Source: Shigella phage EP23. From it: a DNA stretch of 44,077 bases. Shown one piece after another: positions 2,025 to 32,298 of the stretch (positions are counted from its first letter, which is position 1; each line of letters begins with the position of its first letter). Position numbers and translations under genes: made by a program. The DNA lies in sequence record JN984867; one strand, given 5' to 3'. Below the pieces are notes generated by a model, which was not told where the DNA came from, did no database searches, and saw only the letters and a program-made list of their open reading frames with translations.

Positions 2025-3545
2025 ATGACCGTTAACGTTGACAACCAGCACCCACTCTATGCGCGCATCGCGCCAGAGTGGAAAATGATTCGCGATTGTG
2101 TAGCAGGGGAGCGCGCCGTGAAGGCGTGCGGACCATTGTATCTGCCACACCCAGCCAGCGGCGACACCACAGACCCGAAATCGCGTGCGCGCTATAAGGC
2201 ATATAAGCAACGCGCTGTCTTCCTGAACGCCACCGCCCGCACACTGAATGCCTTGTTAGGCGTCGCCTTCGCCAAACCGGTGAGTATGGACCTTTCCGGG
2301 GCAATGGCTGACCTGATCGAAGACGTAGACGGCAGCGGGATGCCCCTGGCGCAACTCCTGCGCGGCGCTATGTCGGAAGTGCTGCAATCGGGCCGCGCAG
2401 GCTTTATGGTGGACTATGACCGCCAGGCGCATTTTGACGAACTGGGTAACGTAGTGCCGCAGACAGCCGCTGAAATGGCGGCACACCGCCCGCTTATCCG
2501 CCTGTATACGGCTGAACAGATCATCAACTGGCGGCAGACCCACGGGGTCGACACGCTAATCGTGCTGAAGGAAACGGACGAAATCAGCACCGAAGACCAG
2601 GACGACTTCGCAAACCACGAGGTGACCATCTGGACCGAGCTTCGCATGATTGACGGCAAGGCACACGCCCGCCGCTGGTTTTACAATGCGGACACGTCAG
2701 AAGTGCAAATGGACTTGCCGCGGGGATTCACCCGAACCGACCTTGTTCCACTGGTGGATGCTGACGGTAACGCGCTTACTCAACTGCCATTTTGCTGGTG
2801 TGGTGCTGTGGACAACAACGCGACGCCGGACGCCGCACCGCTGGCGGATATTGCATCCATCAACATTAAGCACTACAACGCCGAAGCAGACGTCGCCGAG
2901 ATTGCGCACATTGTGGGCCAACCTACACTTATTGCGACCGGTCTTACCCAATCATGGGCTGATAAAAACCTGAAGGGTGGCATCGCACTAGGCGCGACTA
3001 AGGGCGTTATCCTGGGCCAGAACATGGACGCTAAACTGCTTCAGGCTGAGGAGAGAAACCTGTCAGTTGCGCTGTGTGAGCGACGCGAATTGCAAATGGC
3101 TAAACTGGGCGCGGCCCTGGTCGAGAAGGGGACCGCACCTAAGACGGCAACTGAAGCGGCCTACGATGCGCAGACTGATAACAGTATCCTGTCACTGATT
3201 GCCGGTAACGTTGAGAAGGCATTCAACCGTGCGCTGCAAATCGTCAAACTGTTCACTGGCGACACCGCAGATCAACGCGTAACGCTGAATAAGTTCTACA
3301 CCGAAATCACGGTTGACGCACAGCTTATGACCGCGATGATGGCTGGTGTGCAGACCGGTACGGTCCGTCTGGCGGACTTTATCAAGTGGATGATGGCCCA
3401 GGGCGTCATTGATGACTCGCAAACCGTTGAGCAGGTGGAAGACGAATTGCGAAATCAGAATCCATTGCCTCAAATGTCCCCGGATGCGGTAGAATCTACC
3501 GAAGAAGACCCGGACAAGGTAGCGGACAATGGCGAAGACAATTAA
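2025..3545 (+). CDS. portal protein
   Basis: 506 aa ORF following terminase, acidic C-terminal tail, typical size and position. Confidence 0.8.
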   Translation: MTVNVDNQHPLYARIAPEWKMIRDCVAGERAVKACGPLYLPHPASGDTTDPKSRARYKAYKQRAVFLNATARTLNALLGVAFAKPVSMDLSGAMADLIEDVDGSGMPLAQLLRGAMSEVLQSGRAGFMVDYDRQAHFDELGNVVPQTAAEMAAHRPLIRLYTAEQIINWRQTHGVDTLIVLKETDEISTEDQDDFANHEVTIWTELRMIDGKAHARRWFYNADTSEVQMDLPRGFTRTDLVPLVDADGNALTQLPFCWCGAVDNNATPDAAPLADIASINIKHYNAEADVAEIAHIVGQPTLIATGLTQSWADKNLKGGIALGATKGVILGQNMDAKLLQAEERNLSVALCERRELQMAKLGAALVEKGTAPKTATEAAYDAQTDNSILSLIAGNVEKAFNRALQIVKLFTGDTADQRVTLNKFYTEITVDAQLMTAMMAGVQTGTVRLADFIKWMMAQGVIDDSQTVEQVEDELRNQNPLPQMSPDAVESTEEDPDKVADNGEDN

Positions 3546-4632
3546 TCAATATATGGCGGATCGAATGATTCGCCGTCACATATTCACCCAGCGCCTGAGC
3601 AATGACCAGGCGCGGAGGGTGCTGGCTATGTGGGAGAAGTTCCGTCCCTCGTTACTTGGTAAGCTGACCGAGTTACTTGATGGCAAAAAATCCATGAATA
3701 ACAAGGCACTATCCACGCTGTTAACGCAACTCGACAAGACAGTTAAAGCAGAATTGCGCACCGAGTTTAAGGCGTTGGCTGAAAGCCTTCAGGAGTTTGC
3801 CGACACGGAGGCCGATTATCTCGCCGACACATTAACGGCAGCGATCCAGCCGGTGGTCGCTGTACCTGCGATCGAGGTGGTTGGCGTAGTGACCGGTGCG
3901 CAGATCGCAGCGACTGCGATGAAAAACCCGTTCCAGGGAAATACCATGATGCAATGGCCCGATTCATTGTCTGAGTGGACCAGGACGCAGATCGGGAATC
4001 AGGTGCGCGCTGGATTCATCCAGGGTAAGCCGACTATGGAAATTATAGCGGACGTGAGGCGCGCGCTCGGCGGTCGTAGTGCGCAAGCTATCTCAAGCGT
4101 TGTTAAGTCCGCAGTCAACCACTATGCGGCGACAGCCCGCGAATTAATGGTAAAAGCTAATGACGATATTCTCGAAGGTCGCCAATGGTTATCTACATTG
4201 GACACGCATACTTCTCCCATGTGCCAGCTACGCGATCGCCTGTTTTATCCGGTTGATGTTACTCCCGACACCAAAGGAAAGCGCGGCGGGAAAATGGTGG
4301 CTGGGTCACAATATGGCGCTGGTCCGGGAAAGTTGCATTATTGTTGCCGGTCGACGGAGACGTGGAAGGTTAAAGGCATGGAAGATTGGCCCAGTGGTAA
4401 GCGTCCGGCACTGAAGGCTGACGCGGGTCGATTGCTGAGTGAGCAGGTCGACGCGCAGACTGATTTCTTCTCATGGGTGCAGCGCCAGCCGCGCCATATC
4501 CTGGAAGAATTATACGGAGTGCAACGCGCCGACCAGATTATGCGCGGCGTGAAAGTGCCGAAGATGTTCACCGATTCAGGCGAACTAATGACTATTGCGC
4601 AGCTTAAAAACCGGGGGTTATGGCGTGATTAA
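3529..4632 (+). CDS. head morphogenesis / minor head protein (Mu gpF / SPP1 gp7-like)
   Basis: 367 aa ORF overlapping portal 3' end; conserved order terminase-portal-F-like. Confidence 0.7.
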   Translation: MAKTINQYMADRMIRRHIFTQRLSNDQARRVLAMWEKFRPSLLGKLTELLDGKKSMNNKALSTLLTQLDKTVKAELRTEFKALAESLQEFADTEADYLADTLTAAIQPVVAVPAIEVVGVVTGAQIAATAMKNPFQGNTMMQWPDSLSEWTRTQIGNQVRAGFIQGKPTMEIIADVRRALGGRSAQAISSVVKSAVNHYAATARELMVKANDDILEGRQWLSTLDTHTSPMCQLRDRLFYPVDVTPDTKGKRGGKMVAGSQYGAGPGKLHYCCRSTETWKVKGMEDWPSGKRPALKADAGRLLSEQVDAQTDFFSWVQRQPRHILEELYGVQRADQIMRGVKVPKMFTDSGELMTIAQLKNRGLWRD

Positions 4633-4954
4633 ATATGCAGCGATTGGACTGGGTGTCGGTCTGGCGGTAGGATTCTGGCTAGGTGACTCCTATCGCGCTG
4701 GCGTAGTGGCGGAGGCGGCGCAAGAAGCGCAAGCCCAAGCCCAACGGCAGCAAACTAAAGTTGTTGAGCGCTCCGTGCAGGCCGAACAGGCCCGCGACGT
4801 AGAATACCGGACTATCACGAAAGAGGTTGTTAAATATGTTACGCGCCCTAACCGCCCTGATTGTAGTTTTGATGCTGAGCGCGTGCGGATCAAGCAACGT
4901 GCCGTTGATGCCGCTAACGGAGTCGGCGCTGCGACCGCCGTGCAAGTTCGATAG
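4625..4954 (+). CDS. Rz: i-spanin (Rz-like): N-terminal TM helix plus periplasmic coiled coil
   Basis: In-frame GTG at 4625 preceded by GGGGG RBS; IKYAAIGLGVGLAVGFWLG TM segment then Q/A/E-rich helix; overlaps the Rz1-like ORF out of frame. Confidence 0.6.
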   Translation: MIKYAAIGLGVGLAVGFWLGDSYRAGVVAEAAQEAQAQAQRQQTKVVERSVQAEQARDVEYRTITKEVVKYVTRPNRPDCSFDAERVRIKQRAVDAANGVGAATAVQVR

Positions 4955-5066
4955 CCCGTCCGCAGACCCCGACGAGGATTTGATGATTGACGTGAAAAAT
5001 ATGGAATGCGGGGCGAAGCTGAGGGCGCAGGTCCTGGAGTTGCAGCAAATAATTAAGGGGCCGTAA
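4836..5066 (+). CDS. Rz1: o-spanin (Rz1-like outer-membrane lipoprotein)
   Basis: ATG at 4836 after AAGAGG RBS; signal peptide MLRALTALIVVLMLSAC with lipobox L-S-A-C, Pro-rich mature part; begins inside the Rz-like ORF in another frame. Confidence 0.65.
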   Translation: MLRALTALIVVLMLSACGSSNVPLMPLTESALRPPCKFDSPSADPDEDLMIDVKNMECGAKLRAQVLELQQIIKGP

Positions 5067-5077
5067 TGGCCCCTTTT
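5057..5077 (+). terminator. rho-independent terminator after spanin genes
   Basis: GGGGCC-gtaat-GGCCCC hairpin followed by TTTT; Rz1 stop codon lies in the loop. Confidence 0.6.
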
Positions 5078-5079
5078 CG

Positions 5080-5844
5080 TCAGCGCGGAATACCGCAAAT
5101 CTCGTTGAGAGTTTTCACATCCAGCGCCACCGCCGTGGATTTTGGCTTGTCCGGGTATGGTATGAATTGCTCAACTTCAGGCCATGCCTTAATCAGCTTC
5201 TTGTCAGTATTGTGCAGGTCCAGCACACCGGTAACGGTGAGTTTGAACGCATCATACTTCGCGCGTAACTCGCGACGGGCTTTGTCGTTGCGGTCCAGGC
5301 GTTTACAGAAATCATGATCTGCCGGGTAGTCTACGCGACCGCGTGGAAGATATATCGGCAGCGCTTTCCCGTCCTCGTCCACTTCGCACACTGACGCGAG
5401 CATAACCGTCTCGAACCCCGGAACGATATCGCCGAGATCAGGCGCGAGCATATTCATATATTTCTCTTCCCAGTACCCGCGATGTACGCGGTATTGGCGA
5501 CCGTCACCGCTCAAGGACAAGGTGCGAACATTTCCGCCTGCGTTGATTTCGAAAGTGGCGTCGTAAACGCTGCCGATACCCTTCGGACGGTCGGTGTTAT
5601 AACTATACGTCGCCTTGTTGGTGTATACGCTGACGCCGTACATCTGCGACTGGTCATCGAGGATTAACAGGATATGCTCGCGTAGCGCGGCGAATGTGCG
5701 AATGCCGTCCGGCATACAGTCCAGCGTGATTGCGTACGCCAGATCGCGGGAGTCCATCATGATTGATTTGGCTTCGGTTGCGATTTCGTGGTCGCGCAGG
5801 ATGTTAGCCAGGATCTGATTTTTAATGTCTTTCGTCAGTCTCAT
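5080..5844 (-). CDS. hypothetical protein (reverse-strand accessory gene inside structural module)
   Basis: 254 aa ORF, GAGGA RBS before ATG at 5844; no motif recognised. Confidence 0.5.
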   Translation of the reverse strand: MRLTKDIKNQILANILRDHEIATEAKSIMMDSRDLAYAITLDCMPDGIRTFAALREHILLILDDQSQMYGVSVYTNKATYSYNTDRPKGIGSVYDATFEINAGGNVRTLSLSGDGRQYRVHRGYWEEKYMNMLAPDLGDIVPGFETVMLASVCEVDEDGKALPIYLPRGRVDYPADHDFCKRLDRNDKARRELRAKYDAFKLTVTGVLDLHNTDKKLIKAWPEVEQFIPYPDKPKSTAVALDVKTLNEICGIPR

Positions 5845-5925
5845 TTTTGTGTCCTCGTTGTTGGGGCTTTCGCCCCGTTTGGTTTAGTTGAATTTGATGC
5901 CGCCACCAACAGGCCGCTTTGTTCG

Positions 5926-6438
5926 CTACAAACGCATCGGCATGATAACAAGGAAGGCCCCACCTTTGAACGACACACGTGTCGCCTTGTCGACCCCCCG
6001 GAATTCCAGTTTTAAGCTATCAAACTTACGGTCGAACAATTTAGCAATTTTGAAGGCGTCGGATAGGTATGCCCCATTAAACCCGATAGCCTCCACTTTA
6101 GCGCTGGCGAAAGACGAAACTCTACGCCAGTCTGGGAATCGTCCGTCTATGTTCTCTACGGGCAGGGTCCCTATTAATACGTCTTTACTATCAAAGAACG
6201 CTGCGGAGGTGTCGTCAATGTTGCAGTATTCGAATTTAGCAGGTAAGCGGCCTTTAATTGATACTATTTTACTTTCACCTTCGGGAACAACCGCGGACCC
6301 TAAGAACAAACGATGTCCGTCGGAGGCCACAATGAAGCCTTTCTCGTCGAAAAATACACCATTCAGATAGTATCGCACGTCATTAGTTGCGGCGCACATC
6401 ATAGCGGCTTTAAGATCGGCATAGTTAACTTTAATCAT
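5926..6438 (-). CDS. beta sliding clamp (DnaN)-like protein, half-size (about 170 aa)
   Basis: Motifs VRYYLNGVFF, IVASDGHRLF, DGRFPDWRRV, IGFNGAYLSDAF and C-terminal VIMPMRL parallel DnaN domain II-III landmarks (from memory of E. coli DnaN); start taken as second ATG after GAGGA RBS (track ORF extends to 6492). Confidence 0.6.
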   Translation of the reverse strand: MIKVNYADLKAAMMCAATNDVRYYLNGVFFDEKGFIVASDGHRLFLGSAVVPEGESKIVSIKGRLPAKFEYCNIDDTSAAFFDSKDVLIGTLPVENIDGRFPDWRRVSSFASAKVEAIGFNGAYLSDAFKIAKLFDRKFDSLKLEFRGVDKATRVSFKGGAFLVIMPMRL

Positions 6439-6462
6439 TATCATTTCCTCGTTGTTGGTGTG

Positions 6463-6532
6463 CAACCAATATAATGCAACCAACATCTGCAATGCAAGCG
6501 AATTTTGCGATTATTTTTATCGCTGATAATAT
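6463..6532. promoter_or_regulatory. divergent promoter region: leftward TTGCAT-N18-TATATT (clamp-like gene) and rightward TTGCGA-N16-TAATAT (scaffold gene), with two TGCAACCAA motifs
   Basis: Hexamers read directly; shares an extended block (TGCAAG-C/T-GAATTTTGC) with the 24.9 kb promoter. Confidence 0.5.
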
Positions 6533-6586
6533 TAAGGCGTGAAGTCAAGCGGGTGGCCCGCTTTGCCACAATCCCAGGGGGATAGC

Positions 6587-28831: not shown

Positions 28832-29110
28832 CTATGCGACCAATTCAGCAACCAATAAATCGCAGTCGGATATGTTGTCGATAACGCGAACGTCAGCACC
28901 GCGGCGGGCCATTCGCTCATGTTCACGTACCTGGTGCGGCTTCGGTTTTCCTCCGGGGCGCTTCACTTCGACGAACACTATTTTGCCGTTGATGATAATA
29001 ATCAGGTCGGGCGCACCTGCGCGCCCCTCCCATGCCAGTTTTCGGCAGAATCCGCCAACATCTTTCACCCGTCTCATCAGGTGGCTTTGAATCTTGCCTT
29101 CTGGTGTCAT
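28832..29110 (-). CDS. VRR-NUC domain nuclease (PD-(D/E)XK)
   Basis: GAPDLIIIINGKIVFVEVKRPGGK core; start ATG 29110 overlapping polymerase stop. Confidence 0.55.
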   Translation of the reverse strand: MTPEGKIQSHLMRRVKDVGGFCRKLAWEGRAGAPDLIIIINGKIVFVEVKRPGGKPKPHQVREHERMARRGADVRVIDNISDCDLLVAELVA

Positions 29111-32100
29111 TACTTGCGGTAGCGATACATGCAATCGCCCTCTGCGGCAAGTGGGAAGCCTTTCGCCCAAACCGGCAGGTCGCACATCAGCGCGCACAAC
29201 TCCTCGGTTGTGTAGTCGTCGGTATCCGGCACTTCGGTTATCAGCTCATCGTGTACGGAAAGTACGATCTCATACCCCGCAGCTTCAACGCCAGGCATGG
29301 ACCATGCGAGAATATCGCGGCACAACGCCTGTACGATGTTTTCCGTCAGTTTGCCGCCGTAGGTATACTGGAATCCCCACTGGCGCGTCGTCTGATTCTC
29401 GCCCTGATATTTAATGCGTGTGCTGGTGCGCTTCTTGCCGGTGTCTTCGTCGATCTCGGTCGTGACAGACAGCGCGATGCCAGGGTAGCTCATGATGCGC
29501 CCTGACGGCAACTCAATTTTAAGCCACCACCCCGCCGCGTTCGGGTCGTCGCGCTCCTCGTCGAAGGTCGGGTCATGCTTCGCCTTCGTTCGAACAATTT
29601 TGAGCGCTTTCCTGCCATCCGGGCGAACGTTCGCGCCAGCCCAGTACGCTTTGCCCGGATTGCGGATCGCGCAGAGCACCGCGTCCTCCAGTTCGGCCCA
29701 AAAGGCTACCGTCATCGGGTGAGACTCACGCCACATACGTTTGATCGCGTCACACGTCAGCCACACGTTTTTCGGCAGTATGTAAGTTGGGCGCTCGTCT
29801 TTCTTGCCAGGCTTCGGCGGGCGCTTCTCCTCGTTAATGCGAGCGTACTCATAACCCCGCTTCGCCGCCGCCCAAATGTGATCCGGGAATGTGCCCTTCA
29901 TGACGTCAGCCATAGTGTAAAGGTCGAGGCCCAGGTTTTTAGCGAACTGCAAGAACGCCGCGACGCCGCCACCATAGCCCAGGCCAAGCTCGCAGTTATG
30001 CGCCACCAGAAAACCAGACTTAGACGCAATAAGGAACCGGTTTCCGTCTTCCACATCAATCAGGTCGTAAACCGGCTCGCAATAGGTTAACTTCCCGTTC
30101 CAGTTCAGCAATGCGGGTAAGGGCTTCATCGTACTTTCTCTGAAGCTCGGGCACGCTGCGCCGGTTACGGCAGTTTTCCGAACGGCTGACAAACCGAAGG
30201 TTTCCAGGCTCATAGTCGCCGTCTGTATCGATCCTGTCCATTTCGAAGTCTGGCTTATCCCAGCCGTCCAGCGTTTGAACGTAGAGAAGAAACGACCTTT
30301 TATCTCTCTTCCATTCGTCACATACGGCAATCCCACGACCGCCGTAGTTTTTATACCCTTTGGCGCGGGGGTTTGTCGTTCGTGATATTGCCGCTGACAG
30401 CCGGTTGAGTAGCCGCGTTCTGTGCGCATCGTCTGGCATTGCGTCATCGTAGCAAAAATACTGTTTACGATACCGCTTTGTCGCTTCAATTGCGCAGAGG
30501 TTGCATTGGGATGTTTTACCCCTTCGGACGTTGTCATACCCGACGCGTCCTGGCATCGCTCCGCAATCACATTGGGCCAGCAGTTGTCTGTGACCCTGTC
30601 GTTTTGGTAATTCGCGCAGGATAACCAGGCGTCCATACCTCTCGCCAGGGCGCGGACCATCGTGCACCTGTCTGAAACGAGTTGCCTTGCCTCCTTCCAT
30701 GAATGCGTCAAGATTTTGTGGTCTTCTGTCATCAAGACCCCGTCCACGTCTATCACTGGTTTCCACCCCATAAGGTGCGCGCCTTTTGTACTCACCCATT
30801 TTTCGCCGTTCCATACTTTATCCGTTGATGTTACGGCCATAATATCCTTGAACCCGCCATTGGTCAATACTTGGGTATGGCGGTGCAAGCAAGCCTTACC
30901 GATCTGGCGTAAGTCCTTGCGGTTGGCTTTAATGTAATCCGGGTCAAGGCCGAACATCTTACCGGCAGTCTCGCAATAGATATCGCGACCGGCCTTAAAG
31001 ACCATTAACGCTGTTTTCTCGCCAGCGATCCAGGCAAGTCCACGCCCTTCCACATTGGAGTAGTCCGCTACGACAAACTTCTTGCCCTTCGCCGGAATAA
31101 TGCACCCGCGAACGGTCGAGGCCGTTAGCTTCGATATGTCATACGCCCAGTGTGCGGTCCCGCGTAACAGGGAGTTGATGCCGTTGGTGAGCATGTGCGA
31201 CCGGACCCAAAACGAGACGTCGCTTTCACCCTCGCGGCGTTTAATCTTCCCTTCGTGGTCGTCGCTGTACTCGCCACGCGCCAGGTTTTGAGGCTGGAAG
31301 CCTTTGCCCGCCCAGCGCAGCGTGCGCTTTGCGCCGCCATACTGAAGACACCCACGGCGGCGACCATCTGCGGATAAGCCGTTAACTAGCGGATTGTACT
31401 TAGTCGATGCCGTTGATGACGCCCCGAGGCGCATTTCGATAAGCGCTTTGCCTTCGTCGGGGAAGTCCGGGTCTTCAAGCAGGTCGTTAAGCGTGGATTT
31501 CTGCGCGTTGTGGATCGTGAACGCCGGGGCGATATCACGCAGGATTGGCAGGAAGTCATTGCCTGTCAGCTTACCGCCAAATCGCTCCCAGGCTTCTTCC
31601 TTCAATTCTTCCTTATGCGCCTGCACCGCTTTGATCGCGGCGTTCGCCAGGTCAACGTCGACGTAGAAGCCGCGGTCGTTAATCAACTGGTCGATGAGCA
31701 GGATTTCATCTTCCTTAGGCGAGTTTCCCCAGTCCGGTATGCGCCAGTAGACTTCACGCATTGCGATAATATCCAGCGCGGCATAGCGCAGAAATTTGGC
31801 CCATTCTTCCGGGTGAGTCTCGCGAGTGTAGCGGCGGATTTTGTAGGTCTTAGGGGTAGGCTTACAGAATCGGTTAATCAGCGCCTTGCCTGCCTTATCC
31901 TTCGCGTGCTCTGCGTCAACGCCCAGAACCTGGCACTGCATATCGAGGCTACCGGGCAGCGCGTGGCGAAAGGCCATAATCATAGTGTCTTCGATCTGGC
32001 TTACCGGCAGGTCAATACCCCACTTCTCGCGGATAACCAGGCGGTCAAACAGGAGGCCGTTAGCCATCACTATTTTAGCCTTCTTGCGGGATACCCGGCG

Positions 32101-32298
32101 GAGCGCCTTGCGCAGTTCACGCGGCATTGTGGGGGATTCAGTGGCATCCCATGTCTGCACGCGGCCCTCGTCTATGGCGTAGGTGCAAATCATAATCTCT
32201 GTGGTTGGGTGCTCCGCGTAGGCGTACGCCCCAACTTTCTTCAGGTCCACCCCGCTAAATGTCTCGGTGTCGAGAAACAGGCGTTCGAAGTCTTTCAT
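29110..32298 (-). CDS. family A DNA polymerase with 3'-5' exonuclease domain, interrupted by an intein in motif B
   Basis: Exo motif FLDTETFSG, motif A ADYSNVEGR, motif C LSVHDEL; motif B split as RQIGKA / intein / CELGLGYGG. Confidence 0.9.
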   Translation of the reverse strand: MKDFERLFLDTETFSGVDLKKVGAYAYAEHPTTEIMICTYAIDEGRVQTWDATESPTMPRELRKALRRVSRKKAKIVMANGLLFDRLVIREKWGIDLPVSQIEDTMIMAFRHALPGSLDMQCQVLGVDAEHAKDKAGKALINRFCKPTPKTYKIRRYTRETHPEEWAKFLRYAALDIIAMREVYWRIPDWGNSPKEDEILLIDQLINDRGFYVDVDLANAAIKAVQAHKEELKEEAWERFGGKLTGNDFLPILRDIAPAFTIHNAQKSTLNDLLEDPDFPDEGKALIEMRLGASSTASTKYNPLVNGLSADGRRRGCLQYGGAKRTLRWAGKGFQPQNLARGEYSDDHEGKIKRREGESDVSFWVRSHMLTNGINSLLRGTAHWAYDISKLTASTVRGCIIPAKGKKFVVADYSNVEGRGLAWIAGEKTALMVFKAGRDIYCETAGKMFGLDPDYIKANRKDLRQIGKACLHRHTQVLTNGGFKDIMAVTSTDKVWNGEKWVSTKGAHLMGWKPVIDVDGVLMTEDHKILTHSWKEARQLVSDRCTMVRALARGMDAWLSCANYQNDRVTDNCWPNVIAERCQDASGMTTSEGVKHPNATSAQLKRQSGIVNSIFATMTQCQTMRTERGYSTGCQRQYHERQTPAPKGIKTTAVVGLPYVTNGREIKGRFFSTFKRWTAGISQTSKWTGSIQTATMSLETFGLSAVRKTAVTGAACPSFRESTMKPLPALLNWNGKLTYCEPVYDLIDVEDGNRFLIASKSGFLVAHNCELGLGYGGGVAAFLQFAKNLGLDLYTMADVMKGTFPDHIWAAAKRGYEYARINEEKRPPKPGKKDERPTYILPKNVWLTCDAIKRMWRESHPMTVAFWAELEDAVLCAIRNPGKAYWAGANVRPDGRKALKIVRTKAKHDPTFDEERDDPNAAGWWLKIELPSGRIMSYPGIALSVTTEIDEDTGKKRTSTRIKYQGENQTTRQWGFQYTYGGKLTENIVQALCRDILAWSMPGVEAAGYEIVLSVHDELITEVPDTDDYTTEELCALMCDLPVWAKGFPLAAEGDCMYRYRK
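29995..30891 (-). mobile_element. intein (299 aa) in DNA polymerase motif B
   Basis: Insert starts with Cys (codon 30889-30891), ends ...LVAHN followed by Cys (+1); Hint-like blocks CLHRHTQVLTNGG, TEDHKIL, VYDLIDVEDGNRFLIASKSGFLVAHN; excision restores R-x3-K-x3-LG-x2-YG. Confidence 0.8.
30056..30814 (-). CDS. HNH homing endonuclease encoded in an alternative frame inside the intein
   Basis: YGRLVIL...CDCG...RGKTSQCNLC and GYKNYGGRGIAVCDEW...DRIDTDGDYEPGNLRFVSRSENCRNR match phage HNH/His-Me finger proteins; frame differs from polymerase (30814 mod 3 = 1 vs 32298 mod 3 = 0); true start may be an internal Met (~30700). Confidence 0.7.
   Translation of the reverse strand: MERRKMGEYKRRAPYGVETSDRRGRGLDDRRPQNLDAFMEGGKATRFRQVHDGPRPGERYGRLVILRELPKRQGHRQLLAQCDCGAMPGRVGYDNVRRGKTSQCNLCAIEATKRYRKQYFCYDDAMPDDAHRTRLLNRLSAAISRTTNPRAKGYKNYGGRGIAVCDEWKRDKRSFLLYVQTLDGWDKPDFEMDRIDTDGDYEPGNLRFVSRSENCRNRRSVPELQRKYDEALTRIAELEREVNLLRAGLRPD

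Follow-up and report, generated by a model that had tools for sequence, protein, structure and literature searches.

Between its head genes, Shigella phage EP23 carries a short gene on the opposite strand whose product resembles a much reduced form of the bacterial sliding clamp DnaN (the β-clamp). The stretch of DNA analysed here, called the window, is 44,077 nt long and constitutes a complete Dhillonvirus genome (the Escherichia coli siphophage type). Its genes follow the order seen in phage SSL-2009a: terminase, portal, MuF-like head morphogenesis protein, an i-/o-spanin pair, a minus-strand island, scaffold, major capsid protein and tail genes. The island aside, all genes from position 56 to about 23.6 kb lie on the plus strand. 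It consists of two minus-strand genes between the head-morphogenesis/spanin genes and the scaffold gene, as an earlier note made from the sequence alone had described; both open reading frames (ORFs) are present. One, the mini-clamp gene (5926-6438, minus strand), encodes 170 amino acids (aa) from an ATG at 6438 that stands 7 nt after a GAGGA, and its product starts MIKVNY. The other (5080-5844, minus strand) starts at 5844 behind a near-identical leader and encodes a 254-aa Nmad5-domain protein matching PF18757. Between 4600 and 7300 the window is 95-96% identical to phages SD276, YD-2008.s and SSL-2009a, except for one replaced segment. Further along lies a replication module comprising a DUF2800 PD-(D/E)XK nuclease, an Enc34-type protein that binds single-stranded DNA (SSB), a family-A DNA polymerase (PolA), a SNF2 helicase and a primase-helicase. 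No clamp loader gene is found among the window ORFs or in the SSL-2009a annotation.

The kinship of the mini-clamp with DnaN is recovered by sequence, profile and fold comparison. The landmarks that had first suggested it (VRYYLNGVFF, ASDGHRL, DGRFPDWRRV and VIMPMRL) are all present, and the protein is indeed about half the length of a bacterial clamp, with 170 aa against 366 in E. coli DnaN. Searched with phmmer against the PDB, its residues 10-143 align to E. coli β 140-282 (E 5e-8) and its last 60 residues to β 311-366. A hidden Markov model (HMM) built from 47 family members matches E. coli DnaN with an E-value of 7e-30 over β 138-294, and here too the C-terminal third matches β 311-366. 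AlphaFold2 run with the family alignment gives a compact, confident monomer model (predicted local distance difference test, pLDDT, 94.7; predicted template modelling score, pTM, 0.90), for which the top Foldseek matches are all bacterial β-clamps (E about 2e-8). These alignments run over some 259 columns for a 170-residue query, so that about 90 residues must fall in a gap. The two proteins, mini-clamp and E. coli DnaN, share only about 20-30% identity. The DnaN similarity on which the earlier reading depended is upheld by the family profile and the fold search alike.

What has been kept of the clamp is less than two domains. In the model, residues 2-48 form a strand, a helix and three strands, residues 57-97 form four strands with no helix between, and after an FPDWRRV linker a further helix and three strands follow (residues 122-165). 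The total comes to two long helices and about 11 strands, where two full clamp domains need four helices and 16 strands. As modelled, the mini-clamp is DnaN domain II minus its second channel-facing helix, plus one β-α-β-β-β half-domain, or about 1.5 domains. The half-domain carries IGFNxxY and the terminal MPMRL, both elements of the second half of β domain III; domain I and some 60-90 residues of domain III are absent, and alignments begin at β residue 131-140 or thereabouts. The protein belongs to the DnaN clamp fold of β-α-β-β-β repeats and falls outside the full-length DnaN proteins, if these are defined as single chains of about 366 aa that contain three clamp domains, each of about 120 aa, and score above the curated cut-offs. 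It reaches 23.5 bits on TIGR00663 (cut-off 137.65), its PF02767 match is limited to residues 13-58 at 20.3 bits (cut-off 27), and there is no match to PF00712 or PF02768.

Could such a protein close a ring? In the E. coli β dimer, the interface is formed where I78 and F106 (domain I) meet I272 and L273 (domain III). The two domain I residues have no counterpart in the mini-clamp, and the domain III side is ambiguous, since the family's C-terminal helix can also be aligned to β 259-273, the helix of I272 and L273. On these alignments the mini-clamp cannot form the canonical head-to-tail dimer. The earlier note had imagined a two-domain clamp that might trimerise like PCNA or gp45, and this idea fails: two full domains and a PCNA-like trimer are ruled out by the alignments and by the secondary-structure content, with its two helices and roughly 11 strands in about 1.5 domains. 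A trimer would give no closed six-domain ring, because three copies make 4.5 domains. The protein likewise stands outside the two-domain trimeric clamps (PCNA, T4 gp45 and E. coli β*), which have about 230-260 aa and two complete domains. By isoelectric point (pI), a possible sign of ring or non-ring behaviour, the picture is mixed: the window protein, at 8.83, is basic where E. coli β has 5.25, and the family median is 6.5 with a wide spread. We infer that the mini-clamp does not encircle DNA as a canonical ring.

The gene is no isolated curiosity. By tblastn the mini-clamp is found in 247 phage records, in 243 of which at least 80% of the query is covered, and many of these are labelled 'DNA polymerase III beta subunit'. 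At least 422 relatives are present in IMG/VR, with an ORF of 157-280 aa in 79 loci and a single exception of 381 aa. A profile search of 1.84 billion representatives returned at least 542 proteins (50%-identity clusters) at E <= 1e-30; the best 150 of these 542 are all 170-271 aa long and match end to end from residue 1. The phages concerned infect Salmonella, E. coli, Klebsiella, Vibrio and Pseudomonas, and marine phages are also among them. Named relatives include SO-1 gp7 (90.6% identity) and the proteins of WF5505 and CHD5UKE2 (86.5%). The ratio of nonsynonymous to synonymous substitution rates (dN/dS) is 0.21 against WF5505 and 0.26 against SO-1, compared with 0.05-0.06 for neighbouring structural genes and 0.07-0.13 for Nmad5. 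By these ratios selection on the mini-clamp is purifying and somewhat relaxed, as is usual for accessory genes. A pseudogene fragment of some longer clamp gene, an outcome that would have refuted the earlier reading, is ruled out by the uniformly short family together with this purifying selection.

The family has long been annotated, and the window gene joins the known, uncharacterised short polIII-beta homologues. Its residues 1-170 match positions 2-186 of the 190 in the phrog_3007 profile (E 4.9e-55), and GenBank carries the same family under the name 'DNA polymerase III beta subunit' in Dhillonvirus, Jerseyvirus, Kagunavirus and Skatevirus. SO-1 gp7 is entered as 'putative DNA polymerase III beta subunit; possible moron gene product'. 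Kazlauskas and Venclovas pointed out in 2011 that, of 12 phage polIII-beta homologues, 5 are of reduced length (PMC3201878). A literature search found, within the library it covered, no functional study of a short phage clamp, only this 2011 note that short homologues exist. The PHROG label for phrog_3007 is 'RusA-like Holliday junction resolvase', and it has been copied into RefSeq, for example in NC_054651.1, NC_071150.1 and NC_054642.1. A RusA resolvase was considered and rejected: neither Pfam (E <= 1) nor NCBIfam (E <= 0.1) yields a RusA match, and the fold is that of a clamp. The label appears to be a propagated misannotation.

What the family has preserved most faithfully is a binding site. 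In E. coli β, the pocket that receives the clamp-binding motif (CBM) of partner proteins is lined in subsite I by R152, L155, T172, G174, H175, R176, L177, P242, R246, V247, V360 and M362, and in subsite II by H175, N320, Y323, V344, M362, P363, M364 and R365 (PMC11139829). Mapped by sequence alignment, with V344 left unmapped, 16 of 17 of these residues are identical in the window protein: R22, L25, G41, H42, R43, L44, P102, R106, V107, N121, Y124, V164, M166, P167, M168 and R169. The one difference is Ser39, which replaces β T172. Conservation at the pocket positions is 0.89 against 0.41 at other positions in the 47-sequence alignment (Mann-Whitney p 2.6e-9), and 0.85 against 0.37 in 141 further representatives of at most 50% mutual identity (p 1.9e-9). 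As aligned, the near-invariant residues of the family are those that line the CBM pocket of E. coli β. The mini-clamp probably works through this pocket, docking peptides of the Q-φ-x-L-F type off the ring.

If the pocket is intact, which proteins would dock there? A scan for canonical CBMs found nothing convincing in the 58 non-overlapping ORFs picked from the window, at PolA termini, or in the surroundings of 80 mini-clamp loci, where the C-termini of 1427 ORFs were covered. The sole matches were an internal QLNLY in the primase-helicase and a QVELL in the terminase, both probably due to chance.

The surroundings of the gene in other phages offer a second line of evidence on its role. In the Jerseyvirus SE1 and the Kagunavirus fFiEco03 the same slot, between MuF-like and scaffold/capsid genes, holds the mini-clamp by itself on the opposite strand, and in Skatevirus it lies beside the coat protein gene. 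In environmental phages (79 loci) its commonest neighbours are a primase-helicase (25 loci), a likely terminase pair (16 and 25 loci), a family-A polymerase (11) and a DUF2800 nuclease (6); of the two terminase clusters, one gave a weak Terminase_6C match and the other no Pfam match. In Salmonella prophages it is the first gene after a CI-like repressor and heads an early operon that runs mini-clamp, HNH endonuclease, DUF2800 nuclease, Enc34-type SSB, Nmad5 or SIR2_2, PolA. By these neighbours elsewhere, the mini-clamp and, separately, Nmad5 are recurrent accessories of one type of PolA replication module. This DUF2800/SSB/PolA module type is also present in the EP23 window, and in Dhillonvirus and its relatives both accessories sit in the head-gene region.

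Several features mark the mini-clamp gene as a movable piece. Pairwise blastn break points and low GC content delimit a mosaic segment at 5908-6452, the clamp cassette, and in this slot the closest relatives SD276 and SSL-2009a carry an unrelated 110-122-aa ORF instead, an exact exchange. The alternative ORF (on the minus strand at 2786-3154 of the SD276 contig L001) has no Pfam, NCBIfam or PADLOC family, and its sole match, to Cas7f/Csy3, is non-significant (E 0.02-0.09). GC content is 0.470 for the clamp gene against 0.544 for the window, which places it in the 1st percentile of same-size windows (z -2.5). The earlier note had judged the whole island AT-richer by eye; computed GC bears this out for the clamp gene and for the divergent intergenic region beside it (0.443), and not for Nmad5, whose 0.536 is ordinary for the window.

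The cassette borders coincide with a 24-nt direct repeat. One copy, at 5841-5864 (minus strand), is the translation-initiation leader of Nmad5, and the other, at 6435-6458 (minus strand), is that of the mini-clamp (CCAACAACGAGGA...ATG). The copies are 83% identical and cover the ribosome-binding site and start codon of both genes; their 12-mer core, CAACAACGAGGA, is found at only these two sites in the window (0.25 expected). The break points against relatives fall at these repeats, with the boundary against WF5505 at 5841-5864. It is plausible, from this coincidence, that the shared leader serves as a junction for cassette recombination or shuffling.

The second island gene proved less anonymous than the earlier note had thought, which saw in it no recognisable motif: its product is a full-length Pfam Nmad5 protein with published genetics. 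PF18757 matches at E 2.2e-58 and 198.2 bits (cut-off 27), residues 1-253 covering profile positions 1-206 of 206, and phrog_1965 matches as well. The AlphaFold2 model is of medium confidence (pLDDT 73.9), and a fold search with it gave no informative match. In a Dhillonvirus Nmad5, the single change K216E (K296E in a longer annotated form) escapes the Tmn defence (Yamashita et al. 2025, PMC11846954). Deletion of Nmad5 is tolerated, yet gives no Tmn escape, and the gene is toxic to clone (PMC11846954). The window protein has the wild-type Lys216. The Nmad5 of PhiSMA8 and PhiSMS22 is the same gene as window 5080-5844, with 254 aa, K216 and the same place beside the scaffold gene, and differs only by 3-13% sequence divergence.

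Are the two genes a unit? The earlier note had treated them as co-transcribed partners and proposed a check of their co-occurrence, and this check speaks against a unit. Among about 157 Dhillonvirus records the mini-clamp is present in about 14 and Nmad5 in about 144, and of 80 IMG/VR loci searched with an Nmad5 profile, only 2 have such a gene less than 8 kb from the mini-clamp. Four arrangements of the two genes occur. SO-1 is collinear with the window from 5918 on and lacks Nmad5; WF5505 has both cassettes in opposite order; of two metagenomic contigs, L093 shows the window order and L092 has the clamp only, without Nmad5. An obligate two-gene operon is ruled out by the 2/80 linkage, by the four arrangements and by the absence of Nmad5 from SO-1 and L092. 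Judged by this distribution, the mini-clamp and Nmad5 are independent cassettes, and their pairing in the window is incidental. In the Salmonella prophages, the slot upstream of PolA holds either a 493-aa SIR2_2 protein (contig L089, 12181-13662) or a 212-aa Nmad5 (L090 and L091, 12120-12758); because this slot alternates in otherwise identical operons, Nmad5 behaves as exchangeable cargo there too.

The label 'moron-like', which the earlier note gave to the island, fits in part. A moron is an autonomous accessory transcription unit in a phage late region, with its own promoter and terminator. Presence/absence polymorphism, break points, a deviant GC content (for the clamp cassette only) and a terminator hairpin are seen, and the promoter scan came out at chance. 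That the mini-clamp gene behaves as an accessory cassette is supported by low GC, by its presence in about 14 of about 157 records, by the precise exchange and by the SO-1 annotation; a pure moron it is not, since in other phages the gene lies inside PolA replication modules. Taking break points, composition and distribution together, the mini-clamp gene of the window is an independently mobile, lower-GC accessory cassette in a variable slot.

The remaining features of the locus concern its expression. The divergent intergenic region between the mini-clamp (minus) and scaffold (plus) genes, at 6439-6538, has a GC content of 0.443 and repeats at 6461-6486. A sigma-70 consensus scan of this region found three sites where 2.8 are expected, which is chance level; the divergent region of the earlier note thus stands as gene geometry, and its promoters do not emerge from the scan. 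From that geometry, promoters probably lie here nonetheless. The region is conserved with SD276, SSL-2009a, WF5505 and SO-1 from 6444/6453 on. At 6461-6486, TGCAACCAA(T/C)AT is found twice, as the direct repeats TGCAACCAATAT and TGCAACCAACAT 14 nt apart, which may be an operator or promoter element; the region that contains them is conserved in relatives regardless of the cargo gene that follows. At the far end of the island, where the earlier note had set a terminator, there is indeed a G+C-rich hairpin of eight pairs, six of them G-C, at 5055-5075, with a T-run on the plus strand. It lies between the convergent ends of the o-spanin gene (ends at 5066, plus) and Nmad5 (ends at 5080, minus), and is a likely bidirectional terminator, of a terminator-like scan class that shows no enrichment over shuffles. 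Within the 81-nt spacer between the island genes, a second hairpin, GGGGC(GAAA)GCCCC at 5862-5877, has its T-run only on the plus strand. Read-through into Nmad5 is likely, because this hairpin has no U-tract on the minus strand; it might instead terminate antisense transcripts and let that of the island pass.

Two further observations stand apart from the clamp. The i-spanin (4595-4954, plus) and o-spanin (4827-5066, plus) genes directly adjoin the island in the head-gene region, about 36 kb away from the holin and endolysin genes. The o-spanin has the lipobox LSAC and its gene overlaps that of the i-spanin; Kagunavirus fFiEco03 has a spanin at the equivalent place. The family-A DNA polymerase ORF (29110-32298, minus) is 1062 aa long and contains an insert of 299-300 aa (aa 470-769, at about 29995-30891) that is absent from the PolA of SSL-2009a (763 aa) and of a Salmonella prophage (688 aa). 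Its boundaries, GKA|CLHRH...LVAHN|CELGLGYGGG, have the Cys1 ... His-Asn|Cys+1 signature of inteins and fall within a conserved polymerase motif. No intein domain was matched in the insert in Pfam at E <= 1e-3.

What, then, does a clamp pocket without a clamp do? The reading we favour, tentatively and at somewhat less than an even chance, is that the mini-clamp is a decoy for the partners of the host clamp. Made from its own promoter as a free pocket module, it would titrate host proteins that dock on the β dimer, such as the clamp-loader wrench δ, Pol III α and ε, Hda, MutS and MutL and the translesion polymerases. Host clamp-dependent replication and repair would be damped, and the clamp-independent PolA replisome of the phage would go on copying phage DNA. 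A monomeric pocket module could be an efficient trap, because δ binds monomeric β about 50 times more tightly than the dimer (PMC11139829). The decoy is favoured because a host-type pocket is fixed across phages of many host groups and little else is conserved, because canonical CBMs are missing from the phage ORFs, PolA termini and neighbouring C-termini scanned, because the gene is dispensable within the genus, and because the phage itself encodes a PolA, an SSB, a nuclease, a helicase and a primase-helicase. The earlier note had also thought of a clamp mimic or competitor, and the strong conservation of the pocket suits that idea. Going one step further, the short polIII-beta family as a whole might form a new functional class, of free docking-pocket decoys that trap δ and host CBM proteins, or cap β monomers, and in either way would shut down clamp-dependent replication and repair in the host; this wider claim is possible and rather doubtful.

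Several observations weigh against a decoy. The pocket residues are also the best-conserved DnaN residues generally, and homologue detection rewards these same motifs, so the contrast in conservation is partly built in. Residues Y23 and Y24 (β Y153 and Y154) are likewise invariant; in β this pair contacts DNA and the clamp loader. Phage proteins may have internal or non-canonical CBMs, which lie beyond a canonical scan. Nearly all Guernseyvirinae-like phages carry the mini-clamp, an unusual distribution if it is a host-takeover gene that can be dispensed with, and the genomic context fits a constructive role in the replisome equally well. The main rival takes up this last point, and we regard it as a possibility on the doubtful side: the protein would be a non-ring processivity or adaptor factor of the DUF2800/Enc34-SSB/PolA replisome, much like UL42. 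It would bind DNA or a phage protein, and its pocket would hold the phage polymerase or primase-helicase, or recruit a host CBM protein such as Pol I or ligase. Its location with replication genes in many unrelated phages (the primase-helicase, PolA and DUF2800 counts given above) argues for this, as do its place at the head of the early operon before nuclease, SSB, Nmad5 and PolA in Salmonella prophages and the presence of the same module in the window. The basic pI of the window protein points the same way, a raised pI being a mark of non-ring, DNA-binding clamp homologues according to Kazlauskas and Venclovas (PMC3201878), but the family median of only 6.5 and its spread blunt the argument. 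Some 90% of Dhillonviruses do with this replication module and lack the mini-clamp, the PolA termini and the other phage ORFs yielded no CBM, the window protein keeps only one of domain II's two channel-facing helices, and dN/dS is four times that of core genes: all these speak against a replisome part.

The other explanations fare worse. The mini-clamp might be anti-defence or counter-sensing cargo that blunts an immunity tied to clamp processes or to CBM effectors, perhaps together with Nmad5 and Tmn. The variable slot with its alternative cargo, the behaviour of a cassette with its own promoter, the escape of Nmad5 point mutants from Tmn (PMC11846954) and the alternation of Nmad5 with a SIR2_2 protein would fit. 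Against it, neither the mini-clamp nor the Nmad5 protein matches a PADLOC-DB model at E <= 0.1, the two genes are generally unlinked, the Tmn paper does not mention a clamp (PMC11846954), and the family is found mostly in replication modules; we think this explanation unlikely. Less likely still is a true ring of unconventional make, in which four 1.5-domain subunits, with half-domains paired across a dyad, would be loaded by the host and serve a polymerase. The arithmetic works, four times 1.5 giving six domain-equivalents, and an unpaired half-domain ought to expose a hydrophobic face. Clamp domains have a pseudo-twofold symmetry that makes such pairing conceivable, and E. coli β*, with domains II and III, reportedly works as a trimer. 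The confident compact monomer in the AlphaFold2 model, the loss of domain I and of the second domain II helix, the pockets that would lie on both faces as in no known clamp, and the lack of a phage-encoded clamp loader all tell against such a ring. Last, the gene could be a decaying remnant, a captured piece of host dnaN with no function, as a truncated copy of a host gene with lower GC that is dispensable within the genus might suggest. Hundreds of diverged relatives with intact ORFs and the same architecture, a dN/dS of 0.21-0.26, an identity to E. coli DnaN too low for recent capture and invariant pocket residues leave this idea hardly credible; family size, uniform length and purifying selection effectively refute it.

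The interest of the mini-clamp lies in what it isolates. Bacterial replication and repair have their central docking hub in the β-clamp, which is also an antibiotic target, and a very widespread phage family that has pared it to little beyond its pocket looks like a natural experiment on that pocket off the ring. If the decoy reading is true, it would provide a new route of host shut-off and a scaffold for studying or inhibiting contacts between clamp and partners; if the protein instead assists the replisome, it would reveal by what means PolA phages of 40-50 kb, which lack a clamp loader, become processive or bring in host factors. Records entitled 'DNA polymerase III beta subunit' should not be taken to denote a functional sliding clamp, and the title 'RusA-like resolvase' appears to be wrong. 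The adjoining Nmad5 is a Tmn-escape locus and as such relevant to phage-therapy engineering. To a gene family already known, the present analysis adds the architecture of about 1.5 domains, the constraint on the docking pocket, the very large size of the family and the incidental nature of the Nmad5 pairing.

How does the mini-clamp compare with clamps and clamp inhibitors already known? The short polIII-beta homologues were described as consisting of the second and third domains (PMC3201878), whereas the window protein has only about 1.5. Compared with bacterial DnaN (E. coli β; PDB 2POL, 1MMI), it has 170 aa instead of 366 and is missing domain I, the second helix in domain II and roughly half of domain III. 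The herpesvirus processivity factors UL42, UL44, BMRF1 and PF-8 have two full domains of the PCNA lineage and strongly basic DNA-binding faces; the mini-clamp family is derived from β and variable in pI. E. coli β*, reportedly an internal-start product of dnaN with domains II and III, resembles it in design: it is truncated at the N-terminus and starts near the beginning of domain II, like the mini-clamp, but its two complete domains are reported to form a trimeric ring, for which the mini-clamp has too few elements. Among inhibitors, gp8 of phage N4 is said to act against δ, and Twort Gp168 is seen in complex with the β-clamp (PDB 7EVP); both would lead to what the decoy model predicts, a disturbance of host replication that depends on the clamp. 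Gp168 and N4 gp8 are unrelated small binders of β or δ, whereas the mini-clamp would mimic the docking site of β itself. If so, it would be the first case of a virus that disables the clamp hub by mimicking its binding site rather than by binding it.

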